A DNA stretch of 64,000 bases from Escherichia coli (GTDB lineage: Bacteria; Pseudomonadota; Gammaproteobacteria; Enterobacterales; Enterobacteriaceae). Below the pieces are notes generated by a model that was given only the letters and a program-made list of their open reading frames with translations, ran no database searches and was not told the origin of the DNA. Where the stretch lies: assembly GCF_041248615.1 (NCBI RefSeq), contig NZ_CP158426.1; one strand, 5' to 3'. Positions 3,332 to 57,582 of this stretch are shown here, in pieces (positions within the stretch are counted from its first letter, which is position 1; each line of letters starts with the position of its first letter). A program made the position numbers and the translations under genes.

Positions 3332-3790
3332 TTACTGACGACCAGAGTGACCAAAGCCGCCTTCACCGCGGTCGGTGGCGTCGAAATCTTCCACCAGATT
3401 AAATTCAGCCTGTACTACCGGAACAAAAATCATCTGGGCGATGCGTTCGCCAGGTTGAATGGTGAAGCTGTCCTGACCACGGTTCCACACGGAAATCATC
3501 AACTGGCCCTGATAGTCAGAATCGATCAATCCTACCAGGTTACCAAGCACGATACCGTGCTTATGTCCCAATCCGGAGCGCGGCAGCATCATTGCCGCCA
3601 GTGAAGGATCGGCAATATGAATCGCCAGCCCGGTCGGAACCAGCGTAGTGTCACCCGGAGCCAGTTCTACGGCGTCGTCGAGACAGGCACGCAGGTCAAG
3701 TCCGGCAGAGCCAGAGGTGGCATAAGTCGGGAGCGGAAATTCCTTCCCAACGCGCGGGTCCAGAATCTTAACGTCGATTTTTTTCATCAT
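3332..3790 (-). CDS. dut: dUTP diphosphatase
   Basis: 152-aa [18 protein letters not shown]...; trimeric dUTPase motifs. Confidence 0.95.
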
Positions 3791-7414: not shown

Positions 7415-9179
<1,765 letters not shown>

Positions 9180-9530
9180 AGTAAATAGCTGACTTATGGA
9201 TGTGCTGGGGATTCTATGTATTTAGCTGTGGCTTTACCATTACTTTTCCCGTTTTTGACTTAAATAGCAATTTACCCGCCAATTCTTGCTGAACATCTAT
9301 ACTTTTTTTGTATTTTTATGCGATTCATTGATTTCTGCAGTACGTGCAGGAAGGAATCGCAGAGCAACAGTAAAAGAATATAGTTGCTAATGATTTTATT
9401 TGATTGATTTCTTTATTGAAAATCAACAATGTGCTTAAAAATCATTCGGGTCGGATTGCCGCGAAAGAAGTGATACACTAGCGCGTCAATATCAGTGCGG
9501 TATCAGTATTCAGGTAGCTGTTGAGCCTGG

Positions 9531-9542
9531 GGCGGTAGCGTG
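9531..9542 (+). promoter_or_regulatory. ops element GGCGGTAGCGTG (RfaH recruitment site, part of JUMPstart) in the waaQ leader
   Basis: Exact 12-nt ops motif ~50 nt upstream of waaQ start. Confidence 0.8.
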
Positions 9543-9591: not shown

Positions 9592-10650
9592 GTGGATAAG
9601 CCATTTCGAAGAATTTTGCTCATTAAGATGCGTTTTCATGGGGATATGTTATTAACTACTCCCGTCATTAGTTCGCTGAAAAAAAATTACCCTGACGCAA
9701 AAATCGATGTGCTGCTTTATCAGGACACCATCCCGATCCTGTCTGAAAATCCAGAGATTAACGCGCTCTACGGCATAAAAAATAAAAAAGCAAAAGCCTC
9801 AGAAAAAATTGCCAACTTTTTTCATCTCATCAAGGTATTACGTGCCAATAAGTATGACCTTATCGTCAATCTTACCGATCAATGGATGGTTGCTATACTG
9901 GTTCGCTTATTAAATGCCCGTGTGAAAATTTCCCAGGATTATCATCATCGGCAGTCTGCTTTTTGGCGTAATAGTTTCACTCATTTGGTGCCGTTGCAGG
10001 GTGGAAATGTGGTGGAAAGTAACTTATCCGTGCTGTCGCCATTGGGACTTGAATCGTTGGTGAAGCAGACAACCATGAGTTACCCGCCTGCAAGCTGGAA
10101 ACGTATGCGTCGCGAACTTGATCACGCTGGTGTTGGACAAAATTATGTGGTTATCCAACCTACGGCGCGGCAAATCTTCAAATGTTGGGACAACGCCAAG
10201 TTTTCCGCTGTGATTGATGCCTTACATGCTCGTGGTTATGAAGTCGTTCTGACGTCCGGCCCAGATAAAGACGATCTGGTCTGCGTCAATGAAATTGCGC
10301 AGGGATGCCAGACACCACCAGTAACGGCGCTGGCCGGAAAGGTGACCTTCCCGGAACTTGGTGCGTTAATCGATCATGCGCAGCTGTTTATTGGCGTTGA
10401 CTCCGCACCGGCGCATATTGCCGCAGCAGTTAATACGCCGCTGATATCGCTGTTTGGTGCGACAGACCATATTTTCTGGCGTCCTTGGTCAAATAACATG
10501 ATTCAATTCTGGGCGGGAGATTACCGGGAAATGCCAACGCGCGATCAGCGTGACCGAAATGAGATGTATCTTTCGGTTATTCCGGCGGCAGATGTCATTG
10601 CTGCTGTCGATAAATTACTGCCCTCCTCCACGACAGGTACGTCGTTATGA
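9592..10650 (+). CDS. waaQ: LPS heptosyltransferase III (GT9)
   Basis: Heptosyltransferase N-terminus RRILLIKMRFHGDMLLTTP; GTG at 9592 has aagag SD upstream; alternative TTG start at 9616 would give 344 aa. Confidence 0.85.
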   Translation: MDKPFRRILLIKMRFHGDMLLTTPVISSLKKNYPDAKIDVLLYQDTIPILSENPEINALYGIKNKKAKASEKIANFFHLIKVLRANKYDLIVNLTDQWMVAILVRLLNARVKISQDYHHRQSAFWRNSFTHLVPLQGGNVVESNLSVLSPLGLESLVKQTTMSYPPASWKRMRRELDHAGVGQNYVVIQPTARQIFKCWDNAKFSAVIDALHARGYEVVLTSGPDKDDLVCVNEIAQGCQTPPVTALAGKVTFPELGALIDHAQLFIGVDSAPAHIAAAVNTPLISLFGATDHIFWRPWSNNMIQFWAGDYREMPTRDQRDRNEMYLSVIPAADVIAAVDKLLPSSTTGTSL

Positions 10651-11771
10651 TCGTTGCTTTTTGTTTATATAAATATTTTCCCTTTGGCGGTTTGCAGCGC
10701 GATTTTATGCGTATTGCTCAGACAGTCGCCGCCCGAGGTCATCATGTTCGGGTTTATGCCCAGTCGTGGGAAGGCGAATGCCCTGATGTATTTGAACTGA
10801 TCAAAGTGCCGGTTAAATCGCATACCAATCACGGGCGCAATGCGGAGTATTTTGCTTGGGTGCAAAAACATTTACGTGAACATCCCGTCGATAGAGTTGT
10901 TGGATTCAACAAAATGCCGGGGCTGGACGTTTATTATGCCGCTGATGTTTGTTATGCCGAGAAAGTAGCGCAGGAGAAAGGCTTTTTCTATCGCCTTACG
11001 TCACGTTATCGCCATTATGCCGCCTTTGAGCGGGCAACCTTCGAACAGGGCAAGCCGACACAGCTGCTGATGCTGACAGATAAGCAAATCGCCGATTTCC
11101 AGAAACATTATCAGACTGAAGCGGAGCGTTTTCATATTCTACCACCGGGGATTTATCCTGATCGTAAATATAGCCAGCAGCCAGCCAATAGCCGTGAAAT
11201 CTTCCGTAAGAAGAATGGAATAACCGAACAACAATATTTATTGTTGCAGGTTGGTTCAGACTTCACGCGTAAAGGTGTCGATCGTTCCATTGAAGCACTT
11301 GCTTCGTTACCGGATTCGCTGCGCCACAACACATTGCTATATGTTGTTGGGCAGGATAAACCGCGAAAATTTGAGGCGCTGGCAGAAAAACGCGGCGTGC
11401 GCAGTAATGTTCACTTCTTCTCGGGGCGCAACGATGTCTCGGAATTAATGGCGGCGGCGGATTTATTACTGCATCCTGCCTACCAGGAAGCCGCGGGAAT
11501 TGTACTGCTGGAAGCGATAACTGCAGGATTACCGGTACTAACAACAGCCGTTTGTGGCTATGCGCATTATATTGTCGACGCCAATTGCGGCGAGGCTATT
11601 GCTGAGCCATTCCGCCAGGAAACATTGAATGAGATTTTACGCAAAGCGTTAACGCAATCTTCATTGCGCCAGGCCTGGGCGGAAAATGCGCGACATTATG
11701 CTGATACACAAGATTTATACAGTCTGCCAGAGAAAGCGGCGGACATCATAACGGGTGGTCTGGATGGTTGA
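10647..11771 (+). CDS. waaG: LPS core glucosyltransferase I (GT4)
   Basis: 374-aa protein [20 protein letters not shown]...; ATGA overlap with waaQ. Confidence 0.95.
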
Positions 11772-12561
11772 ACTTAAAGAGCCGTTTGCCACGTTATGGC
11801 GCGGTAAAGATCCTTTTGAGGAAGTTAAAACCTTGCAGGGTGAGGTATTTCGTGAACTGGAAACTCGCCGCACTCTGCGCTTTGAAATGGCGGGCAAAAG
11901 CTATTTTCTCAAATGGCATCGCGGCACGACCCTGAAAGAGATAATCAAAAATTTACTCTCATTGCGGATGCCAGTATTAGGCGCAGACCGCGAATGGAAT
12001 GCGATTCATCGACTGCGGGATGTCGGCGTTGATACTATGTATGGGGTGGCATTCGGCGAAAAAGGCATTAATCCGCTCACCAGAACCTCGTTTATTATAA
12101 CCGAAGATCTGACACCAACCATCAGTCTGGAAGATTACTGTGCTGACTGGGCGACTAACCCACCAGATGTTCGCGTAAAGCGTATGCTTATTAAGCGTGT
12201 CGCGACGATGGTGCGCGATATGCATGCTGCGGGCATTAACCACCGCGACTGTTATATCTGTCATTTCCTGCTACACTTGCCTTTTTCCGGTAAGGAAGAG
12301 GAGTTAAAAATTTCGGTAATTGACCTGCACCGGGCGCAGCTTCGCACGCGCGTTCCACGTCGTTGGCGCGATAAAGATCTTATTGGGCTTTATTTTTCTT
12401 CGATGAATATCGGCCTGACTCAGCGGGATATCTGGCGGTTTATGAAAGTGTATTTTGCCGCCCCGCTTAAAGACATTCTCAAGCAGGAACAAGGACTGCT
12501 GTCGCAAGCAGAAGAAAAAGCCACAAAAATCAGGGAAAGAACGATTCGAAAATCGTTGTAA
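11764..12561 (+). CDS. waaP: LPS core heptose(I) kinase
   Basis: 265-aa protein from [14 protein letters not shown]; kinase HRD motif ([11 protein letters not shown]); overlaps waaG by 8 nt. Confidence 0.9.
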
Positions 12562-12576: not shown

Positions 12577-13593
12577 ATGAGTGCCCACTATTTTAATCCA
12601 CAAGAGATGATCAATAAGACAATCATCTTCGATGAAAGGCCAGCGGCGTCAGTGGCATCATCATTCCATGTTGCTTATGGCATTGATAAAAACTTTCTTT
12701 TTGGTTGTGGTGTTTCAATCACGTCAGTTTTGTTACATAACAGCGACGTGAGTTTTGTTTTCCACGTTTTTATTGATGATATCCCTGAAGCCGATATCCA
12801 GCGTTTAGCCCAATTGGCGAAAAGCTATCGTACCTGTATCCAGATCCATCTAGTAAATTGTGAACGGCTTAAGGCATTACCGACGACCAAAAATTGGTCT
12901 ATTGCCATGTATTTCCGTTTTGTAATTGCAGATTACTTTATTGATCAACAAGATAAGATCCTTTACCTGGATGCTGATATCGCCTGTCAGGGAAACTTAA
13001 AGCCGCTGATAACAATGGATCTTGCCAATAACGTTGCTGCTGTTGTTACTGAACGCGATGCTAACTGGTGGTCGTTACGGGGTCAAAGTCTGCAGTGTAA
13101 TGAACTTGAAAAGGGTTACTTTAATTCAGGTGTCCTGTTAATTAATACACTAGCGTGGGCGCAGGAGTCCGTTTCTGCTAAAGCGATGTCGATGCTTGCT
13201 GATAAAGCCATCGTTTCCCGTTTAACCTATATGGATCAAGATATCCTTAATCTTATCCTGTTAGGGAAAGTTAAATTCATTGATGCTAAATACAATACGC
13301 AATTTAGTTTAAATTATGAATTAAAAAAATCATTTGTTTGTCCAATTAATGATGAAACCGTATTAATTCATTATGTCGGCCCGACAAAACCCTGGCATTA
13401 CTGGGCCGGTTATCCAAGTGCGCAACCTTTTATCAAAGCCAAAGAAGCATCGCCCTGGAAAAATGAACCGTTAATGCGGCCAGTTAACTCAAACTATGCT
13501 CGTTATTGCGCTAAGCATAATTTTAAACAAAATAAACCAATTAACGGGATAATGAATTATATTTATTATTTTTATTTAAAGATAATAAAATGA
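12577..13593 (+). CDS. waaO: GT8-family LPS core alpha-hexosyltransferase (WaaO/WaaI-like, outer-core HexII)
   Basis: 338 aa; GT8 signatures (YLDADI DxD motif, HYVGPTKPWHYWAGYP); first gene after waaP as in R1/R4 core types. Confidence 0.7.
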   Translation: MSAHYFNPQEMINKTIIFDERPAASVASSFHVAYGIDKNFLFGCGVSITSVLLHNSDVSFVFHVFIDDIPEADIQRLAQLAKSYRTCIQIHLVNCERLKALPTTKNWSIAMYFRFVIADYFIDQQDKILYLDADIACQGNLKPLITMDLANNVAAVVTERDANWWSLRGQSLQCNELEKGYFNSGVLLINTLAWAQESVSAKAMSMLADKAIVSRLTYMDQDILNLILLGKVKFIDAKYNTQFSLNYELKKSFVCPINDETVLIHYVGPTKPWHYWAGYPSAQPFIKAKEASPWKNEPLMRPVNSNYARYCAKHNFKQNKPINGIMNYIYYFYLKIIK

Positions 13594-13609
13594 AATTGAG
13601 AAAAGTTAA

Positions 13610-14605
13610 ATGAATGAATTTATAAAAGAACGGTTTTCGTATTTAGCCGATAATAAAAAAGAAAACGCCCCAGAGCTAAATGTTTCCTACGGTATCGATA
13701 AGAATTTTTTGTATGGTGCTGGCGTTTCAATTTCTTCCGTTTTGATTAATAATTCAGATATTAATTTTGTCTTTCATGTTTTCACTGATTATGTGGATGA
13801 TGATTATTTAAAGTCATTTAATGAAACAGCAAAACAATTTAATACCTCAATTATTGTATATTTAATTGACCCCAAATACTTTGCTGATCTGCCGACGTCA
13901 CAGTTTTGGTCGTACGCGACATACTTCAGGGTATTGTCTTTTGAATATCTGAGTGAAAGTATTTCCACACTGCTGTATCTGGATGCCGATGTTGTTTGTA
14001 AAGGAAGCCTGAAACCTCTCACAGAAATTATATTTAAAGATGAGTTTGCTGCGGTCGTTCCTGACAATGATAGTACTCAGGCGGCATGTGCAAAACGTCT
14101 TAACATTCCCGAAATGAATGGACGTTATTTCAATGCAGGCGTTATCTATGTCAATCTTAAAAAATGGCATGAAGCAAATTTGACACCGTATTTACTCACG
14201 CTTTTACGAGGTGAAACTAAATATGGCTCTCTTAAATATTTAGATCAGGATGCGTTGAATATCGCATTTAATATGAATAATATCTACCTTGCGAAGGATT
14301 TTGATACTATTTATACCCTGAAAAACGAACTTTATGATCGTAGTCATCGAAAGTATCAGCAAACCATTACCGATAAAACAGTGTTGATTCACTATACAGG
14401 GATAACTAAACCATGGCATAGCTGGGCTGGATATCCGTCTGCATCATACTTTAATATCGCGCGTGAACAATCTCCCTGGAAGAAATATCCTCTTAAAGAG
14501 GCGCGGACTGTTGCAGAAATGCAGAAACAATATAAGCATCTGTTTGCCCATGGTGAGTATATAAAAGGCATAACTTCATTAATTAAGTACAAGCTTAAGA
14601 AATAA
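13610..14605 (+). CDS. waaT: GT8-family LPS core alpha-hexosyltransferase (WaaT-like)
   Basis: 331 aa; YLDADV and HYTGITKPWHSWAGYP motifs; AT-rich. Confidence 0.65.
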   Translation: MNEFIKERFSYLADNKKENAPELNVSYGIDKNFLYGAGVSISSVLINNSDINFVFHVFTDYVDDDYLKSFNETAKQFNTSIIVYLIDPKYFADLPTSQFWSYATYFRVLSFEYLSESISTLLYLDADVVCKGSLKPLTEIIFKDEFAAVVPDNDSTQAACAKRLNIPEMNGRYFNAGVIYVNLKKWHEANLTPYLLTLLRGETKYGSLKYLDQDALNIAFNMNNIYLAKDFDTIYTLKNELYDRSHRKYQQTITDKTVLIHYTGITKPWHSWAGYPSASYFNIAREQSPWKKYPLKEARTVAEMQKQYKHLFAHGEYIKGITSLIKYKLKK

Positions 14606-14614
14606 ATTACTCTT

Positions 14615-15307
14615 ATGATTACAAGTATACGCTATCGCGGCTTCTCATTTTATTACAAAGATAACGATAATAAATATAAAGAAATCTTTGATGAAATACT
14701 GGCCTATAATTTTAAAACAGTAAAAGTATTACGTAATATTGATGATACCAAAGTATCGTTGATTGATACGAAATATGGTCGCTATGTTTTTAAAGTCTTT
14801 GCCCCGAAAACGAAAAGGAATGAACGTTTTTTAAAATCTTTTGTAAAAGGTGACTACTATCAGAATTTGATCGTTGAAACCGATCGTGTCAGAAGTGCAG
14901 GTCTTACTTTTCCTAATGATTTTTATTTTCTGGCTGAGCGTAAAATTTTCAACTATGCCAGTGTTTTTATCATGCTTATCGAGTATGTCGAGGGCGTAGA
15001 GCTCAATGATATGCCGATTATTCCAGAAGATGTTAAAGCAGAAATTAAGGCTTCAATGGAAAAATTGCATGCCTTAAATATGCTATCGGGCGACCCACAC
15101 CGGGGTAACTTTATCGTTAGTAAAGATGGTGTCAGGATAATTGACCTATCCGGTAAAAGCTGTACGGCAGAGCGGAAAGCCCGTGATCGTCTGGCCATGG
15201 AACGTCACCTGGGTATTACCAACGAAATAAAAGATTATGGCTACTATTCAGTAATCTACAGAACCAAACTACGCAAATTTATTAAAAAATTAAAAGGCAA
15301 AGCGTAA
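14615..15307 (+). CDS. waaY: LPS core heptose(II) kinase WaaY-like
   Basis: 230 aa, kinase-like, positioned between GT8 genes as in known core clusters. Confidence 0.7.
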   Translation: MITSIRYRGFSFYYKDNDNKYKEIFDEILAYNFKTVKVLRNIDDTKVSLIDTKYGRYVFKVFAPKTKRNERFLKSFVKGDYYQNLIVETDRVRSAGLTFPNDFYFLAERKIFNYASVFIMLIEYVEGVELNDMPIIPEDVKAEIKASMEKLHALNMLSGDPHRGNFIVSKDGVRIIDLSGKSCTAERKARDRLAMERHLGITNEIKDYGYYSVIYRTKLRKFIKKLKGKA

Positions 15308-15332
15308 ACCACACAGTCAAAACGGAACCAAC

Positions 15333-16361
15333 ATGGATTTATTAGCTGAGAGTATTACTGAAGTCGCTGTCTCTGGGGAAATTGCTAACACCGATCGTGT
15401 GTTAAATATCGCTTACGGTATTGACCGTAATTTTTTATTTGGTGCGGCCGTATCTATGCAATCAGTTGTTATGCATAACCCGGACCTTGCGGTTAAGTTT
15501 CATCTCTTTACCGACTACATTGATGAAGATTATCTACAACGTGTTAACGCTTTTACCAGCAAAAATGCTAACGTTGAAGTAAGAATTTATAAAGTCTCCA
15601 GTGCCTTTATTGATATTTTCCCCAGCCTGAAACAGTGGTCTTATGCAACATTCTTCCGTTTAGTTGCGTTCCAGTATCTGAGTGAAACTATTGAAAATCT
15701 GTTATATATCGATGCTGATGTCATCTGTAAAGGCTCATTAGCTGGATTGCTTGATATCAATTTTGATGGCGATAAGTTCGCAGCTGTTATTAAAGATGTG
15801 CCTTTTATGCAGGAAAAACCAGCGAAGCGTCTGGCTATAGAGGGACTTCCAGGTAATTATTTCAACGCCGGTGTAGTATATCTGCAGCTTGAAGCATGGG
15901 CGAAAAATGATTTTATGAATAAAGCCATTGCTATGCTGGCAAGTGACCCGCAGCATACGAAGTATAAATGCCTTGATCAGGATATTTTAAATATTCTGTT
16001 CTTTGGTCATTGTATTTTTATTAGCGGCGATTATGATTGCTTTTATGGCATTGACTATGAGTTAAAAAATAAAAGCGATGAAGATTATAAAAAGACCATT
16101 ACCGATGATACTAAGCTGATTCATTATGTTGGCGTAACGAAGCCCTGGAACGACTGGACGAATTATCCCTGCCAGAAGTATTTTAATGAGGCTTATCAGG
16201 CTTCTTGCTGGAATGATGTGGCGTTTATTCCAGCCACGAATGAAAAGCAGTATCAAGTGAAATCCAGACATTTGAAAAGAAATGGTAATATTGCATCTTC
16301 ATTTTACTATTTCATGCTCTATTATAGTAAGAAAATAGCGCGTAAGCATTTTTCCAAATAA
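15333..16361 (+). CDS. waaW: GT8-family LPS core alpha-hexosyltransferase (WaaW-like)
   Basis: 342 aa; YIDADV and HYVGVTKPWNDWTNYP motifs. Confidence 0.65.
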   Translation: MDLLAESITEVAVSGEIANTDRVLNIAYGIDRNFLFGAAVSMQSVVMHNPDLAVKFHLFTDYIDEDYLQRVNAFTSKNANVEVRIYKVSSAFIDIFPSLKQWSYATFFRLVAFQYLSETIENLLYIDADVICKGSLAGLLDINFDGDKFAAVIKDVPFMQEKPAKRLAIEGLPGNYFNAGVVYLQLEAWAKNDFMNKAIAMLASDPQHTKYKCLDQDILNILFFGHCIFISGDYDCFYGIDYELKNKSDEDYKKTITDDTKLIHYVGVTKPWNDWTNYPCQKYFNEAYQASCWNDVAFIPATNEKQYQVKSRHLKRNGNIASSFYYFMLYYSKKIARKHFSK

Positions 16362-16392
16362 TTATTAAGATTAATCACCCAGAGATTTTTTA

Positions 16393-17166
16393 ATGAACTT
16401 GCCCATTTATATTGTCTCACTTAAAAGAGATATTGAGCGAAGAAATAAAATAAATGATGTTTTTCATCGATTAAATATTAATTTTGATTTTTTTGATGCC
16501 ATAGATGCTAAAGACCCTCAAAATAAAGAAATTATTGATAAAATGAGATTAAGTGGTGTCGGCGCAGAAATGACTGATGGAGAAATTGCTTGTACATTAA
16601 GTCATCAGCTTATATATAAGGATATGATAGATAAAAATATAGAATGGGCAGTCATTCTCGAGGATGATGTTATCGTCAATGAGAAATTTAAAAAATTTCT
16701 GCAATATTTTAATCTTCCTGAAAAAGACAAGTTAAAACATAATAATTTGTATTTGCTTGGAGGACAGAAAGGATTACATGATTATCCGGTATTGGGGCAA
16801 AGCCTTTTTAGTAAAGTTAAGGTAAGTACTTGTACTTTTCGGCGTGTTAATTTCAATAAAAATAAAATTCGTCGTACATGTTCATATTTGATGAATAAAG
16901 ATATGGCACAAAAGTTGCTCAAATTGACAAAGGATTATGGCACCTATCGAGCTGATAGCTGGAAGTTAATGCATCAACATAATATTATAAAAGAGTTTTA
17001 TTTAGACGAAATAATATTACATCCTATTTTAAATGAGTTTAATAGTCATCTTGAAAGTGAAAGGCTATTAACATCGGAAAAAAAACAACCTAGAACAAGG
17101 CTTCAGAAAAGAATGAAGTTTATACGCTCCTGGATAAAGGTGGCTTTTTTTTCTCTTTTGAAATGA
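16393..17166 (+). CDS. GT25-family (Lic2A/LgtB-like) beta-glycosyltransferase; WaaV (R1) or WaaX (R4) equivalent
   Basis: 257 aa; N-terminus MNLPIYIVSLKRDIERRNKI typical of the GT25 LOS transferase family; directly precedes waaL. Confidence 0.65.
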   Translation: MNLPIYIVSLKRDIERRNKINDVFHRLNINFDFFDAIDAKDPQNKEIIDKMRLSGVGAEMTDGEIACTLSHQLIYKDMIDKNIEWAVILEDDVIVNEKFKKFLQYFNLPEKDKLKHNNLYLLGGQKGLHDYPVLGQSLFSKVKVSTCTFRRVNFNKNKIRRTCSYLMNKDMAQKLLKLTKDYGTYRADSWKLMHQHNIIKEFYLDEIILHPILNEFNSHLESERLLTSEKKQPRTRLQKRMKFIRSWIKVAFFSLLK

Positions 17167-17200
17167 GATTGTTAATTTCAATTTGTTGTGAGATATTAAC

Positions 17201-18454
17201 GTGGAAGTAAAAATTGAGCAATTTCGAAATAATAGCTGTAATTTTATTTTTTTATTGTATTTAATCGGTTTGTTGTTTGTGCCAATTGATCTTAATATCA
17301 CCACTAAAATAATTAATGCGACAGGTGCATTTTCTCTTTTCTTATTAATTGTAAATAAAAAGCACAATTATAATAAAAATGTCATTATATTAATTCTTGG
17401 TTTACTTCTTTTGGGTGCAATGAACCTTATATGGTATGAATTTTATAAAACAGAAGATGTAGTATATAGAAATGCTTATCGAGGCTACCTTGAGTCTGGA
17501 AAACTATTAGTATTTAGCTCGTTGACATTTTTATTACTAAGTAAAAATAAATTCAGGCAAAATGAAAAACTACATTTTATTTCAGCTATCTTAGTTCAAA
17601 TAATCATGCTATGTAGAGCATATTATCAAGGGATATATTTGCATGCAGACCGCATTCCCCTCTCCGCCATGAATGGGAATATTGGTCAGATGGGGGCAGC
17701 GACTATTGCGGCTTATGTGATTACATTTACAACTTTATATTCTTCAATTGTATTCATAAAAATGAAATCGAAATATAAATGGTTTCTATTTTATGCTAAC
17801 TTTGCTTTAAGCTTTGCAGCAGTAATGATGACAGGAACGCGTGCGGCAATTTTCACATTCCCACTTATGATTATGGTCATATTATTTCTTCAGCATCGTG
17901 ATCAAAAAGTGTTTTTATTTAAAGGATTGAGTGGTGTTTTTATATTGCTACTTGCTTGTGGTTTGATATTTAATAAGGAAATTGATAGGCGAATTAATTC
18001 ATTAAAAGCTGATGTTATTTCATATGCTACAAAAAATAACAGTCAATCCTCGGTCGGAGCACGTTTTGCAATGGTTAATGCAGGAATTAAAGGAAGTCCT
18101 GATGGTTTTAATTGGCAATCTCTTGAGCAGCGTGCTGAAAAGATAAAAGCATTAAGTGCAGAAAATAATATTTATAGTGGAGCTTTATTATTCCTTGATG
18201 TACATATGCATAACGAAATTGTGGAATCTCTTTCCACGAAAGGAAAAATTGGTCTTCTTGTTCTTATTATGTTCTATGTTGCAATGATCTATTACTGTAT
18301 ACGAGAGAAAAAATATATACTCTTGGTTTTCCCTGCTTCTATTATGTTATTTGGCATTAGTGATGTCATTACACATGCTAAACCAATACCGGCATCGTGG
18401 ATTGTGTGCCTCTTCCTGTCTATATCGTTTTTGAGTAAAAATGAACCACAATAA
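17201..18454 (+). CDS. waaL: O-antigen ligase
   Basis: 417-aa polytopic membrane protein at the end of the waaQ operon; GTG start uncertain. Confidence 0.75.
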   Translation: MEVKIEQFRNNSCNFIFLLYLIGLLFVPIDLNITTKIINATGAFSLFLLIVNKKHNYNKNVIILILGLLLLGAMNLIWYEFYKTEDVVYRNAYRGYLESGKLLVFSSLTFLLLSKNKFRQNEKLHFISAILVQIIMLCRAYYQGIYLHADRIPLSAMNGNIGQMGAATIAAYVITFTTLYSSIVFIKMKSKYKWFLFYANFALSFAAVMMTGTRAAIFTFPLMIMVILFLQHRDQKVFLFKGLSGVFILLLACGLIFNKEIDRRINSLKADVISYATKNNSQSSVGARFAMVNAGIKGSPDGFNWQSLEQRAEKIKALSAENNIYSGALLFLDVHMHNEIVESLSTKGKIGLLVLIMFYVAMIYYCIREKKYILLVFPASIMLFGISDVITHAKPIPASWIVCLFLSISFLSKNEPQ

Positions 18455-18470
18455 TAAAAGCGTTGACTAA

Positions 18471-18496
18471 GTAAGTGGGTATAATGCCCACTTACT
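18471..18496. terminator. Bidirectional hairpin between convergent waaL and waaC
   Basis: gtaagtggg tataatg cccacttac inverted repeat with flanking A/T runs. Confidence 0.6.
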
Positions 18497-18501
18497 ATTT
18501 A

Positions 18502-19461
18502 TTAAATTAATGTGATTTTTTTATAAACAGCCGCTGCTTCTAAATTATTTAAATTCATTAGCGGAGCCCTACAAACCACCTGATTCTTCCCATATCCGCC
18601 AATTAATCCCGGATCGGTTGGTCCATAAACCGTGATATTCGGTCTATCCAGTGCCGCCGTTAAATGGCTTAACCCCGTATCCACCGACACTACAAATTTA
18701 GCCCCGGCCAGTACGCGGGCAACGCCTTCCAGACTCATCTTCGGCAATACTTCAACATAAGCAAATCCTTCCGCCAGTCGTTTCGCCCGTTCTTCCTCAT
18801 GCGGCGCGCCCCACGGAAGTTTAATCCGTATTCCTGAATCAGCCAGTAAACCAATCAATTCTCGCCAGTGTTCTTCCGGCCAGTGTTTATCATCACGGGT
18901 CGTCGCATGAAGAAATACGGCATATTCGCCAGCATCTGTAGGCAGGTTCGTCAGGAAATGTTGTGCGATAGCATAATCACCTTGGGTTTGCGGTTTGCTA
19001 TAGCCCAAACTTTTGGCAAACAGTTCGCGGGTGCGTTCTACGGCGTGCTGCTGTTTTGCAATATGATGCTTACGATTGTAAAACAGGCTGGCTAACGGTT
19101 CTCGAACGGTTTGCCAGTCCATGCCATGCTTTACGCCATGCGCCAGACGCGTCACCAGCGCCGCGCTTTTTACCAGCCCCTGAGCGTCGATAACTGCGTC
19201 ATAGTTCTCTGCTTGTAGCGCTTCACGAAACGCTTTGCGTTCAGCTTTTATGGGGGCCGAGAACCAGGCTTTACGCCAGCGACGTATTGCCACAGGAATA
19301 ACTCGCTCAACGGCGGCGTGCCAGGAAGGAATCTGTGCGAACCCTTCTTCCACCACCCAGTCAAACTTAATCCCTGGGATTGCCTGCTGGGCATCAGTGA
19401 GTGCGGGCAGCGTATGGAGAACATCGCCCATCGACGATGTTTTAACGATCAAAACCCGCAT
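18502..19461 (-). CDS. waaC: LPS heptosyltransferase I
   Basis: 319-aa protein MRVLIVKTSSMGDVLHTLPAL... Confidence 0.95.
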   Translation of the reverse strand: MRVLIVKTSSMGDVLHTLPALTDAQQAIPGIKFDWVVEEGFAQIPSWHAAVERVIPVAIRRWRKAWFSAPIKAERKAFREALQAENYDAVIDAQGLVKSAALVTRLAHGVKHGMDWQTVREPLASLFYNRKHHIAKQQHAVERTRELFAKSLGYSKPQTQGDYAIAQHFLTNLPTDAGEYAVFLHATTRDDKHWPEEHWRELIGLLADSGIRIKLPWGAPHEEERAKRLAEGFAYVEVLPKMSLEGVARVLAGAKFVVSVDTGLSHLTAALDRPNITVYGPTDPGLIGGYGKNQVVCRAPLMNLNNLEAAAVYKKITLI

Positions 19462-19464
19462 CCG

Positions 19465-20511
19465 TCAGGCTTCCTCTTGTAACAATAGCGCGTTGAGTTC
19501 TTCCAGTACGCGCTGGGGAGTAATGTCGATCAAGCTCTGGTGATAACCCTCCGCAGCGTCACCTTTACGCACTTTGTGATAGCCGGTAATCAGGCGGATC
19601 ACGCGTGCTTTATGGGATAGCGGCGGTGTGAAGTCCGGGCTACTCGGACCATACAAGGCAACCAGCGGACGATTGAGCGCCGCCGCAACGTGCATCAGTC
19701 CAGAATCGTTAGTGACAATGGCTTTACAGGCTGCAATCAGGATAACCGCTTGATCAAGCTGTGTTTCCCCTGCCAGGTTCCGGCACCATGCCTGCTGCTC
19801 GGTATTTAAAGCGGCAAGAATCTCATTGCCCGCTTCATGATCTTTCGCCGAGCCAAACAGAACCACCTGATAACCTTCATCAATCAGCTGCTTTGCCAGC
19901 TCCGCATAGTGGTAGTGTGGCCAGCGTTTTGCCGGACCAAACTCCGCACCCGGGCAAAAGCCAATCATCGGACGTTCTGATGAAAGCGAAAATTGATTAC
20001 AGGTATATGATTTTTCACCTTCGCTCACCTGCAACTGCGGCCATAACAATGGCTGCGGCAGATCTTGTGCTGTACGCATAATGCCTTTGTCATAGGCCAG
20101 CGCGACATAGCGTTCCACCATTAGCGGCCAGGCTTCTTTATTGAGCACGCGTACATCGTTGAGTAAACCGTAGCGCATCTCGCCGCGCCAGCCGGTGCGA
20201 TGAGGAATACCCGCGAAGAAAGGCACTAATGCGGATTTGAAGGAGTTGGGTAAGACGTAGGCGCGGTCGTAGCGCTTTTCACGCAGACTATGACCCAGTT
20301 TGCGGCGTTCGCCGATTTCCAGCGCTCCGTGACCGAGAGGCATAGGAATAGCTTCGTTAACTTCCGGCATCCGCGATAATAATGGACGGCACCATGCCGG
20401 TGCCATCACGTCGATTATCGCCTGGGGATAGCGCGCCTGGAGCGTGCGATAGAGACTTTGCGACATCATCATGTCGCCAACCCAAGACGGGCCGATCACC
20501 AGTATTTTCAT
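19465..20511 (-). CDS. waaF: LPS heptosyltransferase II
   Basis: 348-aa protein MKILVIGPSWVGDMMMSQSLY... Confidence 0.95.
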   Translation of the reverse strand: MKILVIGPSWVGDMMMSQSLYRTLQARYPQAIIDVMAPAWCRPLLSRMPEVNEAIPMPLGHGALEIGERRKLGHSLREKRYDRAYVLPNSFKSALVPFFAGIPHRTGWRGEMRYGLLNDVRVLNKEAWPLMVERYVALAYDKGIMRTAQDLPQPLLWPQLQVSEGEKSYTCNQFSLSSERPMIGFCPGAEFGPAKRWPHYHYAELAKQLIDEGYQVVLFGSAKDHEAGNEILAALNTEQQAWCRNLAGETQLDQAVILIAACKAIVTNDSGLMHVAAALNRPLVALYGPSSPDFTPPLSHKARVIRLITGYHKVRKGDAAEGYHQSLIDITPQRVLEELNALLLQEEA

Positions 20512-20520
20512 GCAGAGCTC

Positions 20521-21453
20521 TTATGCGTCGCGATTCAGCCAGGCCATGTATTCCGTTACACCTTCAGCAACGGTTTTGAACGGTTTGTCGTAACCCGCCG
20601 CGCGCAGATTCGTCAGATCTGCCTGAGTGAACGCCTGATAGCGGCCTTTCAGTTTATCCGGGAACGGAATGTATTCGATCTGGCCTTTCTTGTGATAAGC
20701 AAGCGTTGCATCGGCTACAGCCTGGAAGGATTCCGCACGACCGGTGCCGAGGTTGAAGATGCCGGAAACGCCATTTTCCAGGAACCACAGGTTTACATCT
20801 GCCACGTCGCCCACATAGACGAAGTCACGTTTGAAGTTCTCGCTACCTTCGAACAGCTTCGGTGATTCACCGTTATTAAGCTGGGTGTTGAGATGGAAAG
20901 CGACGCTCGCCATGCTGCCTTTATGGCCTTCACGCGGTCCATAAACGTTGAAATAGCGGAAGCCAACAATCTGCGAGTTCGCTTCTGGCAGGATTTGACG
21001 AACATATTCATCAAACAGGAATTTTGAGTAACCGTAGACGTTCAACGGTTTTTCGTACTCGCGGGATTCAATAAAGTCGGAGGTGCGTCCGCCGTAAGTG
21101 GCTGCGGAAGAAGCGTACAGGAACGGGATTTCGCGCTCCAGACAGTAGTGCAGCAGCTCTTTGGAGTATTGATAGTTGTTATCCATCATATACTTGCCAT
21201 CCCACTCGGTGGTGGAAGAGCACGCGCCTTCGTGGAAAATCGCTTCGACATCGCCGAACTCTTCGCCAGCCATAATCTGGATCAGGAAGTCTTCCTTATC
21301 CATATAGTCCGCGATATCCAGATCCACCAGGTTCACAAACTTGGTGCCGTCTTTCAGGTTGTCCACCACCAGAATATCGGTGATGCCTTTATCATTCAGG
21401 GCCTTAACGATGTTGCTGCCGATAAAGCCCGCGCCGCCGGTAACGATGATCAT
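20521..21453 (-). CDS. hldD: ADP-L-glycero-D-manno-heptose 6-epimerase
   Basis: 310-aa protein [19 protein letters not shown] (Rossmann GxGxxG). Confidence 0.95.
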
Positions 21454-21666
21454 AACTGTAACCTTCGAATTATGGAGTCAGAGACAATCTCAGACACGAA
21501 TGCTTCTATCATATCACTACACGGCGTTGGCTTCAGCCATTCGCCAAAAGTGAGATTGATGGACGTTATTTATCCTGAATTTTGCAGAAGTGTTAACGCG
21601 TCATCTCGTCGCGACCTATAAGTTTGGGTAATATGTGCTGGAATTTGCCCTGTCTGGAGAATCGCA

Positions 21667-24136: not shown

Positions 24137-25171
24137 ATGATGAACAGCACCAATAAACTTAGTGTTATTATCCCGTTATATAATGCGGGCGATGATTTCC
24201 GCACTTGTATGGAATCTTTAATTACGCAAACCTGGACTGCTCTAGAAATCATTATTATTAACGATGGTTCAACGGATAATTCTGTTGAAATAGCAAAGCA
24301 TTACGCAGAAAACTATCCGCACGTTCGTTTGTTGCATCAGGCGAATGCTGGCGCATCGGTGGCGCGTAATCGTGGGATCGAGGTGGCGACGGGCAAATAT
24401 GTCGCTTTTGTCGATGCTGACGATGAGGTCTATCCCACCATATACGAAACGCTGATGACCATGGCGTTAGAGGACGACCTCGACGTGGCGCAGTGCAACG
24501 CTGACTGGTGTTTTCGTGAAACGGGAGAAACCTGGCAATCCATCCCCACCGATCGCCTTCGCTCAACCGGCGTATTAACCGGCCCGGATTGGTTGCGGAT
24601 GGGGCTTTCTTCCCGCCGTTGGACTCACGTTGTCTGGATGGGGGTTTATCGCCGCGATGTTATTGTTAAAAATAACATTAAATTTATTGCCGGATTACAT
24701 CATCAGGATATTGTCTGGACAACAGAATTTATGTTTAATGCGCTGCGTGCGCGATATACCGAGCAATCGTTATATAAATATTATCTGCATAATACGTCAG
24801 TGAGTCGGTTGAATAGACAAGGGAATAAAAACCTTAATTATCAACGTCACTATATTAAAATTACCCGCCTGCTAGAGAAATTAAATCGAAATTATGCCGA
24901 CAAAATTACGATTTATCCGGAATTTCATCAGCAAATAACTTACGAAGCATTGCGTGTTTGCCATGCGGTGCGCAAAGAGCCGGATATTATTACCCGCCAA
25001 CGGATGATTGCCGAGATATTTACTTCTGGTATGTATAAGCGCCTGATTACCAATGTGCGCAGCGTGAAGGTGGGTTATCAGGCGTTACTGTGGTCTTTCC
25101 GCTTATGGCAATGGCGCGACAAAACGCGGTCGCACCATCGCATTACGCGTAGCGCCTTTAATTTACGCTAG
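24137..25171 (+). CDS. waaH: GT2-family LPS glucuronic acid transferase WaaH (YibD)
   Basis: 344 aa; GT2 motifs (VIIPLYNAGDDF, DADDE). Confidence 0.9.
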   Translation: MMNSTNKLSVIIPLYNAGDDFRTCMESLITQTWTALEIIIINDGSTDNSVEIAKHYAENYPHVRLLHQANAGASVARNRGIEVATGKYVAFVDADDEVYPTIYETLMTMALEDDLDVAQCNADWCFRETGETWQSIPTDRLRSTGVLTGPDWLRMGLSSRRWTHVVWMGVYRRDVIVKNNIKFIAGLHHQDIVWTTEFMFNALRARYTEQSLYKYYLHNTSVSRLNRQGNKNLNYQRHYIKITRLLEKLNRNYADKITIYPEFHQQITYEALRVCHAVRKEPDIITRQRMIAEIFTSGMYKRLITNVRSVKVGYQALLWSFRLWQWRDKTRSHHRITRSAFNLR

Positions 25172-49680: not shown

Positions 49681-50202
49681 TTATTCATCGATGCATTTTA
49701 TAGAATCATCAATGGCTACAATAGTACTATTAACTCTCCAATTTATATTTTTATTATCATTGCAAATATTAACTGAATCTATATCAATGATTTTTTTATT
49801 TTTATCTTTTATTTTGTTTACAGTTTCAATGCAATCAGCGACAAGTTGGTGTGGATTTAGATTCTTCAGATATGGTCTTATGATCTTTCCCTTGCTTAAT
49901 AAATAGCATGTATAGGATTCGGAAAGTCCAGCATCTATTTTGTACATCATTATTCTAGATAAGGATGTGAGAAATGCCTTGTTATCATTAGCAGCCATAT
50001 ATGCCAGTCCGAGTTCAGCCTCTGCGGCTTTACATGAAAAATAGCTAAGTGAACACGCTTTTCGTCCCTCTTGGGTACTGGCTGATATTAGTGCCCATAA
50101 TATTGCCTTGTCTGCCAAATCCAACTCTCTCTGAAATTGGTTTACAGTAACTGCATTCGCAGAAATAGAGAAGAAAAGCACAATTGTTAATAACCTTGTC
50201 AT
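49681..50202 (-). CDS. Hypothetical secreted Cys-rich protein (candidate periplasmic immunity protein of the orphan module)
   Basis: 173 aa; signal peptide MTRLLTIVLFFSISANA; seven Cys; AT-rich; starts 4 nt after the stop of the upstream small ORF. Confidence 0.5.
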   Translation of the reverse strand: MTRLLTIVLFFSISANAVTVNQFQRELDLADKAILWALISASTQEGRKACSLSYFSCKAAEAELGLAYMAANDNKAFLTSLSRIMMYKIDAGLSESYTCYLLSKGKIIRPYLKNLNPHQLVADCIETVNKIKDKNKKIIDIDSVNICNDNKNINWRVNSTIVAIDDSIKCIDE

Positions 50203-50206
50203 ATTT

Positions 50207-50482
50207 CTAGTCCGTCACTGTTAATGTGCTATCTGGCTCTGAAAATATTAGCTCATTTAATTTTTGCATGTCATTAGATGAACCAGTTATACAACCCTCG
50301 GAACAGAATCGAGGTCCTAAAGATGGACCAAAAGCGTTTAAACAACTATGTGTTAAAAATCCATCACGATTATACGTTTCTGTATTTGCTGACGGTACTA
50401 AACGTATACCATTAGGTTTTCTATTGGTTGCTCCAGGACTGTTAAGCAAGCCTCGTCCGGTTTGCTTCATTGAGTTCTCCAC
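50207..50482 (-). CDS. Hypothetical small protein (candidate orphan toxin tip)
   Basis: 91 aa; internal Met MKQTGRG (start at 50470) has GGAG SD 7 nt upstream; preceded by a vestigial rhs start ATGAGCGGAAAACCAGCGG...TAA. Confidence 0.4.
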   Translation of the reverse strand: MENSMKQTGRGLLNSPGATNRKPNGIRLVPSANTETYNRDGFLTHSCLNAFGPSLGPRFCSEGCITGSSNDMQKLNELIFSEPDSTLTVTD

Positions 50483-50570
50483 TTTAGACTATTGGACTAT
50501 CTTTCAACATGGCATCGCCTTAGTATACCGCTGGTTTTCCGCTCATTGTTAATTTTCTCTTTCGTTCATT

Positions 50571-50981
50571 TCACTTAATTTTCAGTTTTTTCCAAAAGTC
50601 AATATTCCCTTCTAATAAAATTTTTTCTATGGAATCTTCATTAATTTTATTATTAGAGCATATGACATTATCTTGAACGCCATATGACACCACCCCGTTT
50701 TTATCAATATAATATCTGTCTTTACCATCAATAATATAAATCCTAACATTTTTATCATCAAAATGGTAACACTCATTACTAGACCTGTTCAGTAACATTA
50801 ATAACTTCTCACGATTTATCTGTAATAATTTTTGTGCACCATCTTTTATTGCAAAATTTTCAATTTTACTTTTAGTGACAGGGGAATATGTTTGGATGCG
50901 AAAAGGCATCCTATAATGGAAAACATCAGCTATACAGCAAGATGAAAAAAATACGGAAATAAAATACAGACATACTTTCAT
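50571..50981 (-). CDS. Candidate Rhs immunity protein
   Basis: 136 aa; AGGAG SD 5 nt upstream; 57 bp downstream of the rhs stop; AT-rich; hydrophobic N-terminus MKVCLYFISVFFSSCC. Confidence 0.55.
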   Translation of the reverse strand: MKVCLYFISVFFSSCCIADVFHYRMPFRIQTYSPVTKSKIENFAIKDGAQKLLQINREKLLMLLNRSSNECYHFDDKNVRIYIIDGKDRYYIDKNGVVSYGVQDNVICSNNKINEDSIEKILLEGNIDFWKKLKIK

Positions 50982-51038
50982 ACCATCTCCTAAACTGGTG
51001 ATATATTAAAAACATACCCAAAAGCAATATAAAAATGT

Positions 51039-53124
51039 TTAATATTTCATTCTTGCTGGCAAGCCCAACTCTTTACGAAATGGGTTTTCATATTTATCAA
51101 CATTAGCCATCGAGTCAGTTCCATCGTCTTTCATTCCCTTTGCATGCCCCATTTCATGCGCAAGAACCACACTCAACAGAGTGGGTTTCATGGCACATGC
51201 TTTGTTTTTTCCTTGATATACACATGAGCTATGGTCGTTATCAATATCAATGTAAAAACTATATTCAGTATCATCGTAGCATGTTTGGTTTATGCCTTTT
51301 CTTAATCCTCTAAATATATATTCATGCTCTGATGACTCTAATTCTTCTGTTATTTTATGTCCAAACTTTGTTTCTGCTACAGCTTTATATGCTTCTTTTA
51401 AAGTTTTTTGTGTACTTTCATCTCCCTGAAAAGACACTTTTAACCCTAATGGATCGAAACCAGATACCGGATTCAACGGATACTGATAAAAATTCCATCC
51501 CCCCTTAAGCCCAATCGGATCCTGAGTGATATACCGCCCCTGCAGCGGGTCATAATAGCGGTGGCGGTTGTAATAGAGGCCGGACTCCTCATCATACTGC
51601 TGACCCGGCAGGCGGATGAGCTGCTGCAGCTGGTGCGGGTTCTCTTCATTCAGCAGGTTGCCCCATTCATCGTATTCTGCGCACCATTCTGTTGCCCCTT
51701 CCGTGCTGACAAGCGCCAGCGGCAGGCCGCGATGGTCGCAGTGGTACAGGTGGATTTTTCGCGCCGGCGTGTACACCGGGTCCATCTGGTTTTGTATCTG
51801 CTCCACCGTCAGGCCGCACGATGCCAGCCAGCGGCGGCTTTCCTCACTCACCCGGTCAGCCAGGATTTCACTTTCCAGCCGGTCGAGCATCTGCACCAGC
51901 ACCGGCGGGAACACCACACTGCCACCGTCTTCACCGCCGGACTGCTGAAGCGCATCCGCCAGGCTGCGGCGCTGCGTTTTCGCCAGCTCACCGGTGGCAG
52001 TTTCAACTCTGATGAGTGGCGTGAAGCTCCCCGGCTGATAAACCGTCTGGATGCGGGTTCTGTCGTTCTGTATTGTGGTCAGCCGGTCGCCGTCCCAGCC
52101 GTACCAGGTCACTTCCGGTTTCCGTGACAGCGACATCCAGCCCGTCAGGTCCCGTTCACGCCGCCACACCCGTTTTGCCACCCTGCGGCCCAGCGGGTCG
52201 TAAAGATAGCGACTTTCGACCAGCGGCTCTGCATATTGTGTCCGCGTGTAGTGCACCAGCCGGTGCCGGCTGTCGTAATGGTACCGGTGAGTCCGCTCAT
52301 CATCCGTGCGGATAACCCCTTCCGGGATGAGGTCGGTTTTCTCCGTCAGCCTGCCGTGACGGTCATACCGGTAAAGATAGTGCGCGTCACGGGCGATACG
52401 GTTATCCGGCCACATGCTGAGGGTGCTGTCCGGGTGCAGCTCCGGGTCGGGCAGGCGGTTACCTGCCGGGTCCGTGGCATACGGGATGCGGATATCCAGA
52501 TTCGCTGCGGTGGTGTGGACGCCGGTCAGCCTGCCGGTGTCGCTGTAGCTGTAACTCCGGGTCTGGCGCGGGCTGCTGATGCGGATGAGTTCGCCGTTGT
52601 CGTTCCAGGTGTAATCGCGGTCATACTGCAGGCTGTTCAGGTGCTGGCTCTGTAACTGCCCGGCAGAGGTGTAAGCGGTGGTGAGTTCATAACGGCCGAA
52701 GCTGCGCAGCGTTTCCCGGTGCAGGCGGTCGCGGGTGTACTCCACCAGCGGTGTGTCGCCGAGTTTCATGCCTGACAGCCAGCCGCTGCCGTAGGTCAGC
52801 CATTCCACGGCGGGCAGGCTGTCCGGTATACAGCGGTTCGCCAGTCCCTGCGCGTTGTACGCATGTCTGGTTTCATGCTGCCAGAGCAGTGCTTCCGTCT
52901 GCGGGTGATGCACCGTCTGGCGCTCACCGGTCAGGCGGCCTTTCTCATCATACCCGTAATGCACCGTCACCCGGTGGCCTTCGCTGAGATGGCTGATTTG
53001 TGTCAGCCAGCCGCGTTCGTCGTACCGCCACTGTTCTGCGGTTTCACCATTCACCGTTCGCTGTGTGATGCGGTCTGCTTCGTCATAGTGCCAGTGGGTG
53101 ACCAGCCCCTCATCCTCGCTGCGG
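51039..53124 (-). pseudogene. rhsA: rhs C-terminal fragment: YD-repeat core, DPxGL boundary, HExxH-containing C-terminal toxin domain
   Basis: YD repeats; ...[11 protein letters not shown]...[17 protein letters not shown]...; the ORF-track start [14 protein letters not shown] is encoded by the IS21 end. Confidence 0.85.
53119..53124. repeat. Target-site duplication CTGCGG (IS21-family insertion), copy 1
   Basis: Identical hexamer at 55706-55711 immediately outside the opposite IS end. Confidence 0.6.
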
Positions 53125-53209
53125 TGCGTATTACCGTGAAGGAGATCGGTGAGTAACATCGATGGAGATCGGTTCGTGTCACTTTCACAGAACCGTTTTT
53201 AAATTACCT

Positions 53210-53959: not shown

Positions 53960-53970
53960 TGGATCCCGTA

Positions 53971-55512: not shown

Positions 55513-55705
55513 AGGTATCCTTTACCGGAATGGCAAAAGATACAGATCAACACACCTGTGAAGTTCCAATAACATTGATGGAGATCACTGAATAACAAAA
55601 TGAGTCAAAAGTGATCTCCATCGATGTTATTCAGCGATCTGTTCAAATGTTATTACCCGATCTCGATGGAAGTTATTGAGTGATCTCCTTTCATGAAAAT
55701 ACGCA

Positions 55706-55711
55706 CTGCGG
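55706..55711. repeat. Target-site duplication CTGCGG, copy 2
   Basis: See copy 1. Confidence 0.6.
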
Positions 55712-56723: not shown

Positions 56724-57478
<755 letters not shown>

Positions 57479-57582
57479 ATCAGCATACTTGTCCTTAGCC
57501 TTCTGCAGTGACAGCTGGTAGTACAGCGTGCTTCTGGCCAGCCCTGCAGCCTTTAACAGGTCAGACTGGCAGTGTCCGCACC

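Follow-up and report, generated by a model that had tools for sequence, protein, structure and literature searches.

Gene content of a chromosomal waa locus in Escherichia coli points to the R4 lipopolysaccharide core type

We conclude that a 64,000-nucleotide stretch of Escherichia coli DNA (NZ_CP158426.1; hereafter, the window) carries the chromosomal waa (rfa) locus and, judging by its genes, almost certainly specifies the R4 lipopolysaccharide (LPS) core type. Six genes on the plus strand, waaO, waaT, waaY, waaW, waaX and waaL (12577-18454; hereafter, the block), lie 3' of waaQ-waaG-waaP. The R4 gene cluster has already been described and is ordinary, and the locus adds nothing new biologically. 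The first-pass annotation had read the order after waaQ-waaG-waaP as two GT8 genes, a WaaY-like kinase gene, a further GT8 gene, a GT25 gene and waaL, all co-oriented with waaQ; its coordinates proved exact, and the NCBIfam and Pfam assignments agree with it. Its statement that the hldD-waaF-waaC operon lacks waaL is likewise borne out by the open reading frames and by annotation. The window shows 100% identity to E. coli NRZ14408 (NZ_LT599825.1), the open reading frames have the coordinates of the RefSeq annotation of that record, and every frame of the block is uninterrupted and of the annotated length. The features of the locus are as follows.

7902-9179, minus strand: waaA, Kdo transferase, divergent from waaQ (annotation).
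9504-9542, plus strand: JUMPstart RNA element in the waaQ operon leader (Rfam RF01707, E=6e-10; 55.2 bits, gathering score 35).
9592-10650, plus strand: waaQ (rfaQ), heptosyltransferase III, heading the central operon (NCBIfam equivalog NF007742, 710 bits, cut-off 467; annotation).
10647-11771, plus strand: waaG, GT4 glucosyltransferase for the first outer-core glucose (RefSeq annotation of the identical record; 99.5% amino acid identity to the R1 comparator).
11764-12561, plus strand: waaP (rfaP), heptose(I) kinase (equivalog NF011703, 482 bits, cut-off 170; annotated start 11764).
12577-13593, plus strand: waaO, GT8 alpha-1,3-hexosyltransferase for the second outer-core residue (NF011718, 611.9 bits, cut-off 461).
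13610-14605, plus strand: waaT, GT8 alpha-1,2-galactosyltransferase (UniRef name of the exact sequence; 99.4% amino acid identity to R1).
14615-15307, plus strand: waaY (rfaY), heptose(II) kinase (equivalog NF007684, 401 bits, cut-off 248).
15333-16361, plus strand: waaW, GT8 alpha-1,2-galactosyltransferase (UniRef RepID Q9ZIS1_ECOLX; primer site shared by R1 and R4).
About 16263-18575, no strand: ~2.3-kb cassette distinguishing R4 from R1 (identity windows against R1; end of the megablast match).
16393-17166, plus strand: waaX, GT25 beta-1,4-galactosyltransferase, diagnostic for R4 (PF01755; UniRef RepID Q9ZIS2_ECOLX; 380-bp in silico amplicon).
17201-18454, plus strand: waaL, R4-type O-antigen ligase, closing the waaQ operon (Pfam Wzy_C; match to 7TPG).
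18470-18496, no strand: hairpin with a 12-bp stem, candidate bidirectional terminator (terminator-like scan, consensus match only).
18502-21453, minus strand: hldD(rfaD)-waaF-waaC operon, without waaL (open reading frames; annotation; 94-100% amino acid identity to the R1 comparator).

The assignment turns on the gene between waaW and waaL. Its protein belongs to GT25 (Pfam PF01755, E=3e-51), and the exact sequence is held in UniRef as 'Beta-1,4-galactosyltransferase' with the RepID Q9ZIS2_ECOLX, which is WaaX. The adjacent ligase has the O-antigen ligase domain Wzy_C (Pfam PF04932, E=2e-7), and its amino acid identity is 33.7% to the WaaL of R1, 28.7% to that of K-12 and 18.9% to that of R3; by sequence, this waaL is R4-type and separate from R1 waaL. 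NCBIfam assigned no family to either the GT25 protein or WaaL. For the shared GT8 enzymes, the WaaT and WaaW proteins match the NCBIfam model of WaaO with scores below its cut-off. The exact WaaT sequence is named 'UDP-galactose:(Glucosyl) LPS alpha1,2-galactosyltransferase WaaT' in UniRef, and the exact WaaW sequence has the representative name 'Galactosyltransferase', with WaaW as the name of cluster members. WaaO is 99.7% identical in amino acids to R1 WaaO and only 50% identical to the WaaO of K-12 and R3; RefSeq calls it '3-alpha-galactosyltransferase', at odds with the glucosyltransferase role assumed here.

Core typing by in silico PCR gave the same answer. Using the primers of Trofimova et al. 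2025 (PMC13293308, Table 2) and allowing up to three mismatches, we found perfect matches for R1R4-R in waaW (16202-16221, plus strand) and for R4-F in waaX (16563-16581, minus strand), which together yield a product of 380 bp, the size published for R4 (PMC13293308). The other seven primers, specific for R1, R2, R3 and K-12, had no site in the window at this threshold. As a positive control, the R1 comparator NZ_CP076268.1 (strain D217-5) yielded 842 bp, the published R1 size. The first-pass annotation had proposed core-type PCR as a check and had named best matches to K-12, R2 or R3 beforehand as refuting its reading; the R4 product was the only one obtained, and no such best match occurred.

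Much of the locus looks equally like R1, the type in which waaV occupies the position between waaW and waaL, its product adding the beta-glucose at which O antigen is attached. In the R1 comparator the genes follow the same order and are grouped into the same operons; waaL belongs to the waaQ operon, and htrL/yibB is missing, as it is here. Nucleotide identity to the comparator is 98-99.6% from waaQ through waaY, with waaO, waaT and waaY at 98.6-99.6%. However, the slot between waaW and waaL encodes a 327-amino-acid GT2 protein (WaaV) in R1 and a 257-amino-acid GT25 protein here, and a forced global alignment of the two gave 17% identity, with no meaningful similarity. This difference, together with the missing R1-F site and the divergent ligase, refutes the R1 reading, to which we give next to no credence. 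The first-pass annotation had held that the GT25 gene would decide between R1 (WaaV) and R4 (WaaX). The slot does decide, in favour of R4, but WaaV is not a GT25 protein; because the R1 slot holds a GT2 gene, the GT25 call alone already pointed to R4. In practice, the glycosyltransferase family of the intervening gene (GT25 or GT2) suffices to separate R4 from R1.

Comparison with R1 also delimits the exchanged segment. In 30-column windows, identity to R1 falls from 100% to 33-70% within the cassette (37-60% in most windows), and is 90-100% on either side over the stretch compared (15903-16262 on the left and 18575-19600 on the right). Megablast matches to R1 genomes stop at query positions 3687-3714, corresponding to 16263-16290 of the window, and genomes that, like the R1 comparator, match waaO-waaW only lose their match at this point. 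By sequence, the difference between R4 and R1 is thus confined to about 2.3 kb comprising the final ~100 nt of waaW, waaX, waaL, the intergenic hairpin and the final ~75 nt of waaC. Because the borders lie inside the coding sequences of waaW and waaC, the two encoded proteins have C-terminal tails that co-vary with WaaX or WaaV and with WaaL. That this co-variation means functional coupling, beyond the position of a recombination breakpoint, seems unlikely. Core-type-tuned protein contacts within a core-assembly complex would be one example of such coupling.

Five core types are known in E. coli, of which R4 ranks fourth in frequency. The full-length block was present at 97.9-100% identity in 690 of 5,426 complete E. 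coli genomes (12.7%; block coverage of at least 80%), and waaL and waaX fell in one continuous match in all 690. Searched for by itself, waaX was likewise present in 690 of the 5,426. Around 1,838 further genomes (33.9%) matched the waaO-waaW part only. Published core-type frequencies are 12.3% for R4 and 35.4% for R1.

Two other readings keep the R4 genes but alter the outcome. One is an R1/R4 hybrid such as that described for ECOR46 (PMC13293308), carrying waaV with R1 waaL as well as waaX with R4 waaL and making a mixed core. Such a strain would be compatible with our search in so far as R1-specific genes were sought within 64 kb of the genome only. However, the locus is uninterrupted, with no transposase and each gene present once in the open reading frame list and in the annotation of the identical record; no R1 primer site lies in the window; and in the best-matching records the full block and the GT25 gene each match a single place (for NZ_LT599825.1, the full block only). 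We regard a hybrid as extremely improbable. The other is that the locus only resembles R4 and represents a novel or hybrid outer-core variant, in which WaaX or WaaL might, for instance, have changed specificity. Specificity is unreadable from sequence, and WaaL diverges strongly between core types (19-34% identity), which leaves room for such a variant; against it, the GT25 sequence is exactly the one named Q9ZIS2_ECOLX, and the block, with all frames whole, recurs at no less than 97.9% identity in the 690 genomes. The chance that this is such a variant appears negligible, and the R4 reading stands.

The remaining core types are dismissed: K-12 on its gene set, its waaL position and the lack of K12-F and K12-R sites; R3 on the layout of O157:H7, its WaaL and the lack of an R3 primer site; and R2, judged on gene content and primers only, on the absence of waaK and waaZ from the operon and of an R2 primer site.

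The block is AT-rich relative to its flanks, as had been claimed by eye for the stretch from the GT8 genes to waaL. Its GC content is 34.7%, compared with 49.7% for the window; 1-kb windows average 51.5% outside the block (sd 5.0) and range from 28.5% to 38.5% inside it. The 5,878-base stretch of lowest GC in the entire window begins at 12682, nearly coincident with the block, and third-position GC is 25% in both the GT25 gene and waaL. Outer-core types are generally accepted to have arisen through horizontal acquisition and cassette exchange, and the low GC content and the sharp borders of the cassette fit this view.

Upstream, the JUMPstart element ends 50 nt 5' of the waaQ start and contains the ops motif GGCGGTAGCGTG at 9531-9542, read directly from the sequence. 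The presence of GGCGGTAG in the JUMPstart of the waaQ leader (RF01707 and direct reading) would place the operon among those dependent on RfaH. At the other end, the candidate terminator sits in the 47-nt gap that separates the convergent stop codons of waaL and waaC. A scan of the region returned 28 promoter-like sites (31 expected from shuffled sequence) and 10 terminator-like sites (12 expected), so that the terminator-like total is no higher than chance, and the hairpin is noteworthy among these sites because of its position.

Published work on R1 and R4 suggests how the core would be assembled. RfaH would be recruited at ops, enabling RNA polymerase to transcribe the long, AT-rich operon to its end. 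WaaG would add GlcI to HepII and WaaO would add GlcII, with GalI and GalII contributed by WaaT and WaaW, respectively. WaaX would then add a beta-linked galactose side branch, the predicted hallmark of R4 relative to R1, in which the GT2 enzyme WaaV would add beta-glucose in place of beta-galactose. The heptoses would be phosphorylated by WaaP and WaaY, and HepIII would be added by WaaQ. MsbA would flip the lipid A-core to the periplasmic face, where the core-type-matched WaaL would transfer O antigen from its undecaprenyl-PP carrier to the finished core. The WaaX linkage is given as beta-1,4 in PMC13293308, as in the UniProt name, and as beta-1,3 in PMC3526765; the sources conflict, and linkage chemistry is not readable from sequence. 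LPS core type governs the recognition of a strain by core-specific antibodies and LPS-binding phages and is associated with O-antigen type; the present finding is relevant to strain description only.

Set against known systems, the locus occupies the same chromosomal site as in K-12 MG1655, between waaA/coaD and kbl/tdh. MG1655 shares waaQ, waaG and waaP (84% amino acid identity for WaaP), with waaO and waaY at about 50%. Its operon, however, runs waaQ-G-P-S-B-O-J-Y-Z-U, and waaL is part of the rfaD operon, after waaC; MG1655 has waaS, waaB, waaJ, waaZ, waaU and htrL and no GT25 gene. Both the gene set and the position of waaL thus uphold the earlier reading of an R1/R4 rather than a K-12 arrangement. 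In the R3 strain O157:H7, rfaL likewise belongs to the rfaD operon, and waaO(I)-waaY-waaJ is followed by a GlcNAc transferase gene.

Among solved structures, residues 197-366 of WaaL, in the periplasmic-loop region, align with the WaaL O-antigen ligase of Cupriavidus metallidurans (PDB 7TPG/7TPJ; E=6e-8), although the two proteins share little similarity overall and use different core acceptors. Arg214, Arg288 and His335-x-His337-Asn-Glu stand opposite identical residues in 7TPG, and the histidine motif H-x-H-N-[DE]-I-V-E is common to both ligases. Residues 6-105 of the GT25 protein align with 'Glycosyltransferase family 25 protein' (PDB 8XC8/8XLZ; E=2e-13 to 8XC8), and its N-terminal half aligns with human procollagen galactosyltransferase 1 (COLGALT1; E~1e-5). 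The alignable region is the N-terminal nucleotide-sugar-binding half; these enzymes are distant relatives with different acceptors, for which only the first ~100 residues can be aligned.

The closest known system is the locus of the R4 reference strain F2513 (Heinrichs, Yethon, Amor and Whitfield 1998, J Biol Chem 273:29497, as cited in ref. 10 of PMC13293308). We detected no difference from it, the link being made through the UniRef representative identifier and through primers designed and validated by others. The two loci share the order waaQ-G-P-O-T-Y-W-X-L, the convergent hldD-waaF-waaC operon, the Q9ZIS2_ECOLX WaaX and the 380-bp waaW-waaX amplicon.

The block spanning 12577–18454 of the window, six genes from waaO to waaL lying 3′ of waaQ-waaG-waaP, shows 100% identity along its entire length with positions 172577–178454 of the chromosome of E. 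coli isolate NRZ14408 (NZ_LT599825.1). The window thus corresponds to positions 160001–224000 of that chromosome, and its RefSeq annotation was used beside our own ORF list, which reproduced every gene coordinate of the first-pass annotation.

Genes of the waa locus in the window (ORF list)
9592–10650, + strand, waaQ
10647–11771, + strand, waaG
11764–12561, + strand, waaP
12577–13593, + strand, waaO
13610–14605, + strand, GT8 gene (waaT)
14615–15307, + strand, waaY
15333–16361, + strand, second GT8 gene (waaW)
16393–17166, + strand, GT25 gene (waaX), encoding a 257-aa protein
17201–18454, + strand, O-antigen ligase gene (waaL)
18502–19461, − strand, waaC
19465–20511, − strand, waaF
20521–21453, − strand, hldD

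RfaQ, RfaP, WaaO and RfaY exceeded the curated cut-offs of NCBIfam equivalog models; the other two GT8 proteins matched the same GT8 model as WaaO, but below its cut-off. In Pfam, the GT25 protein was assigned to PF01755 (Glyco_transf_25; E = 3e-51) and the ligase to Wzy_C (E = 2e-7). No ligase gene lies among waaC, waaF and hldD, which converge on the waaQ operon from the − strand. The ORF list, NCBIfam and Pfam together confirm the earlier observation of six co-oriented genes and an hldD-waaF-waaC group without waaL. The block is also AT-rich, as had been claimed (34.7% GC, against 49.7% for the window). GC in 1-kb windows averages 51.5% (sd 5.0) outside the block and ranges from 28.5% to 38.5% within it, and the lowest-GC stretch of block length anywhere in the window begins nearby, at 12682. 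GC declines along the operon; at third codon positions it is as low as 25% in both the GT25 gene and waaL.

RefSeq names WaaO (12577–13593) ‘lipopolysaccharide 3-alpha-galactosyltransferase’ through NCBIfam NF011718. In the R1/R4 literature, WaaO is the alpha-1,3-glucosyltransferase that adds GlcII, and K-12 WaaO, 50% identical to that of the window, carries a glucosyltransferase annotation; the galactosyltransferase name is probably inaccurate. Another LPS core-modifying gene, waaH (UDP-glucuronate:LPS(HepIII) glycosyltransferase; 24137–25171), is located just past kbl-tdh, outside all three waa operons.

The first-pass annotation had left undecided whether the GT25 gene encodes WaaV (R1) or WaaX (R4). 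A published set of nine typing primers has been validated against 4,549 genomes (Trofimova, Westerman and Jaschke, Microb Genom 2025, PMC13293308, Table 2). The shared primer R1R4-R matched perfectly at 16202–16221 (+), inside waaW, and R4-F at 16563–16581 (−), inside the GT25 gene, and the predicted amplicon of 380 bp is exactly that published for R4. No site for any of the seven remaining primers (R1, R2, R3 and K-12) occurs in the window at up to three mismatches. As an R1 control we picked D217-5 (NZ_CP076268.1), a genome in which the match to the block stops after the first 63% and whose amplicon is 842 bp, as published for R1. The gene that separates its waaW from its waaL encodes 327 aa and is annotated as glycosyltransferase family 2; the product has no meaningful similarity to the GT25 protein of the window (a forced global alignment gives 17% identity). 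The comparator's WaaL is 33.7% identical to that of the window. Because WaaV is GT2 and WaaX is GT25, the original GT25 assignment had already decided for R4.

The exact sequence of the GT25 protein bears the UniRef name ‘Beta-1,4-galactosyltransferase’ (RepID Q9ZIS2_ECOLX) and that of WaaW bears RepID Q9ZIS1_ECOLX; such adjacent TrEMBL accessions are expected from one deposited cluster, which we take to be the 1998 R4 reference. Among 5426 complete E. coli genomes, 690 (12.7%) contain the GT25 gene, and also the full block at no less than 97.9% identity, and about 1838 more (33.9%) match only the waaO–waaW part; published core-type frequencies are 12.3% for R4 and 35.4% for R1. Typing primers, R1 control, source names and population frequencies agree in pointing to R4, supporting the R1/R4-type reading and resolving its undecided point. 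An ECOR46-like R1/R4 hybrid, as described in PMC13293308, is unlikely, because the locus is intact, single-copy and without transposases, R1-specific genes having been sought within the 64-kb window. A new outer-core variant can in practice be excluded, since the diagnostic GT25 protein is the exact sequence bearing the UniRef representative's name, and the block is common to all 690 genomes. An R1 locus is excluded by the missing R1 primer sites and by the GT2 gene in the R1 slot. The locus is a textbook R4 waa locus, already known.

From waaQ through waaY, the window and the R1 comparator share 98.0–99.6% nucleotide identity. Identity remains 97–100% from 15903 up to about 16262, falls to 33–70% from 16263 (37–60% in most windows) and returns to at least 90% at about 18575; megablast matches to R1 genomes stop at the same place, 16263–16290. 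These limits define a type-specific cassette of about 2.3 kb, the lowest-GC part of the locus, which takes in waaX and waaL, the final ~100 nt of waaW and ~75 nt of waaC, and a hairpin in the intergenic gap. Its borders cut into the coding sequences of waaW (16263–16361) and waaC (18502–18575) at their 3′ ends, so that both proteins have C-terminal tails that vary with core type (WaaW, 342 aa in the window versus 341 in the R1 comparator; WaaC, 319 versus 323). The hairpin (18470–18496; perfect 12-bp stem), called on a consensus match only, lies where waaL and waaC converge, within the 47 nt separating their stop codons (18454 and 18502), and is possibly a bidirectional terminator.

The waaQ leader contains a JUMPstart element at 9504–9542 (Rfam RF01707; 55.2 bits versus a gathering score of 35), the sole gathering-level Rfam match across the 64-kb window, with the ops motif GGCGGTAGCGTG at 9531–9542, 50 nt 5′ of waaQ. 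The equivalent K-12 leader carries the annotated sRNA RirA. On the basis of established work on these protein families (Heinrichs et al. 1998, via PMC13293308; review PMC3526765), RfaH recruited at ops would suppress termination over the long AT-rich operon. WaaG, WaaO, WaaT and WaaW would build the Glc-Glc-Gal-Gal main chain, WaaX would attach the side branch of beta-galactose that sets R4 apart from R1 (where WaaV adds beta-glucose), and WaaP, WaaY and WaaQ would decorate the heptose region; a WaaL matched to the core type would then ligate O antigen in the periplasm. The WaaX linkage is beta-1,4 in PMC13293308, as in the UniProt name, in conflict with the beta-1,3 of PMC3526765. WaaL aligns with the solved ligase 7TPG over the periplasmic-loop region, with identical residues at Arg214, Arg288 and the His335-x-His337-Asn-Glu-Ile-Val-Glu motif, and the N-terminal ~100 residues of WaaX align with solved GT25 structures.

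Elsewhere in the window, a YadA-like trimeric autotransporter of 1439 aa is encoded at 36968–41287 (− strand); a DUF3251 gene (41331–42014) comes next, and an AT-rich stretch at 41.5–43 kb (37.5–41% GC) adjoins them. An Rhs element (49681–59203), three pieces of which carry pseudogene annotation, is broken up by two insertion sequences:

53210–55512, istA and istB of ISEc12 (IS21 family)
56756–58104, IS1397 (IS3 family)

The element has an AT-rich tip. Downstream, a stretch of 33–36% GC at 49–51.5 kb holds a hypothetical gene and one for an Imm57 immunity protein.

Between hldD and kbl, htrL/yibB is absent from the window, leaving a gap of only 213 bp (21454–21666), and from the R1 comparator, but present in K-12 MG1655 and O157:H7; with one locus of each type compared, lack of the gene may be associated with the R1/R4 layout. 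In MG1655, waaQ-G-P-S-B-O-J-Y-Z-U runs opposite to rfaD-waaF-waaC-waaL, exactly the K-12 arrangement described at first pass. The R3 strain O157:H7 TR01 likewise has rfaL within the rfaD operon, and its outer-core gene set is different. The WaaO and WaaY of the window share only about 50% identity with the K-12 and R3 proteins of the same names, and its WaaL shares 28.7% identity with the K-12 ligase and 18.9% with that of R3. Because the layouts differ and these identities are low, both types are rejected, and the locus is neither K-12 nor R3.
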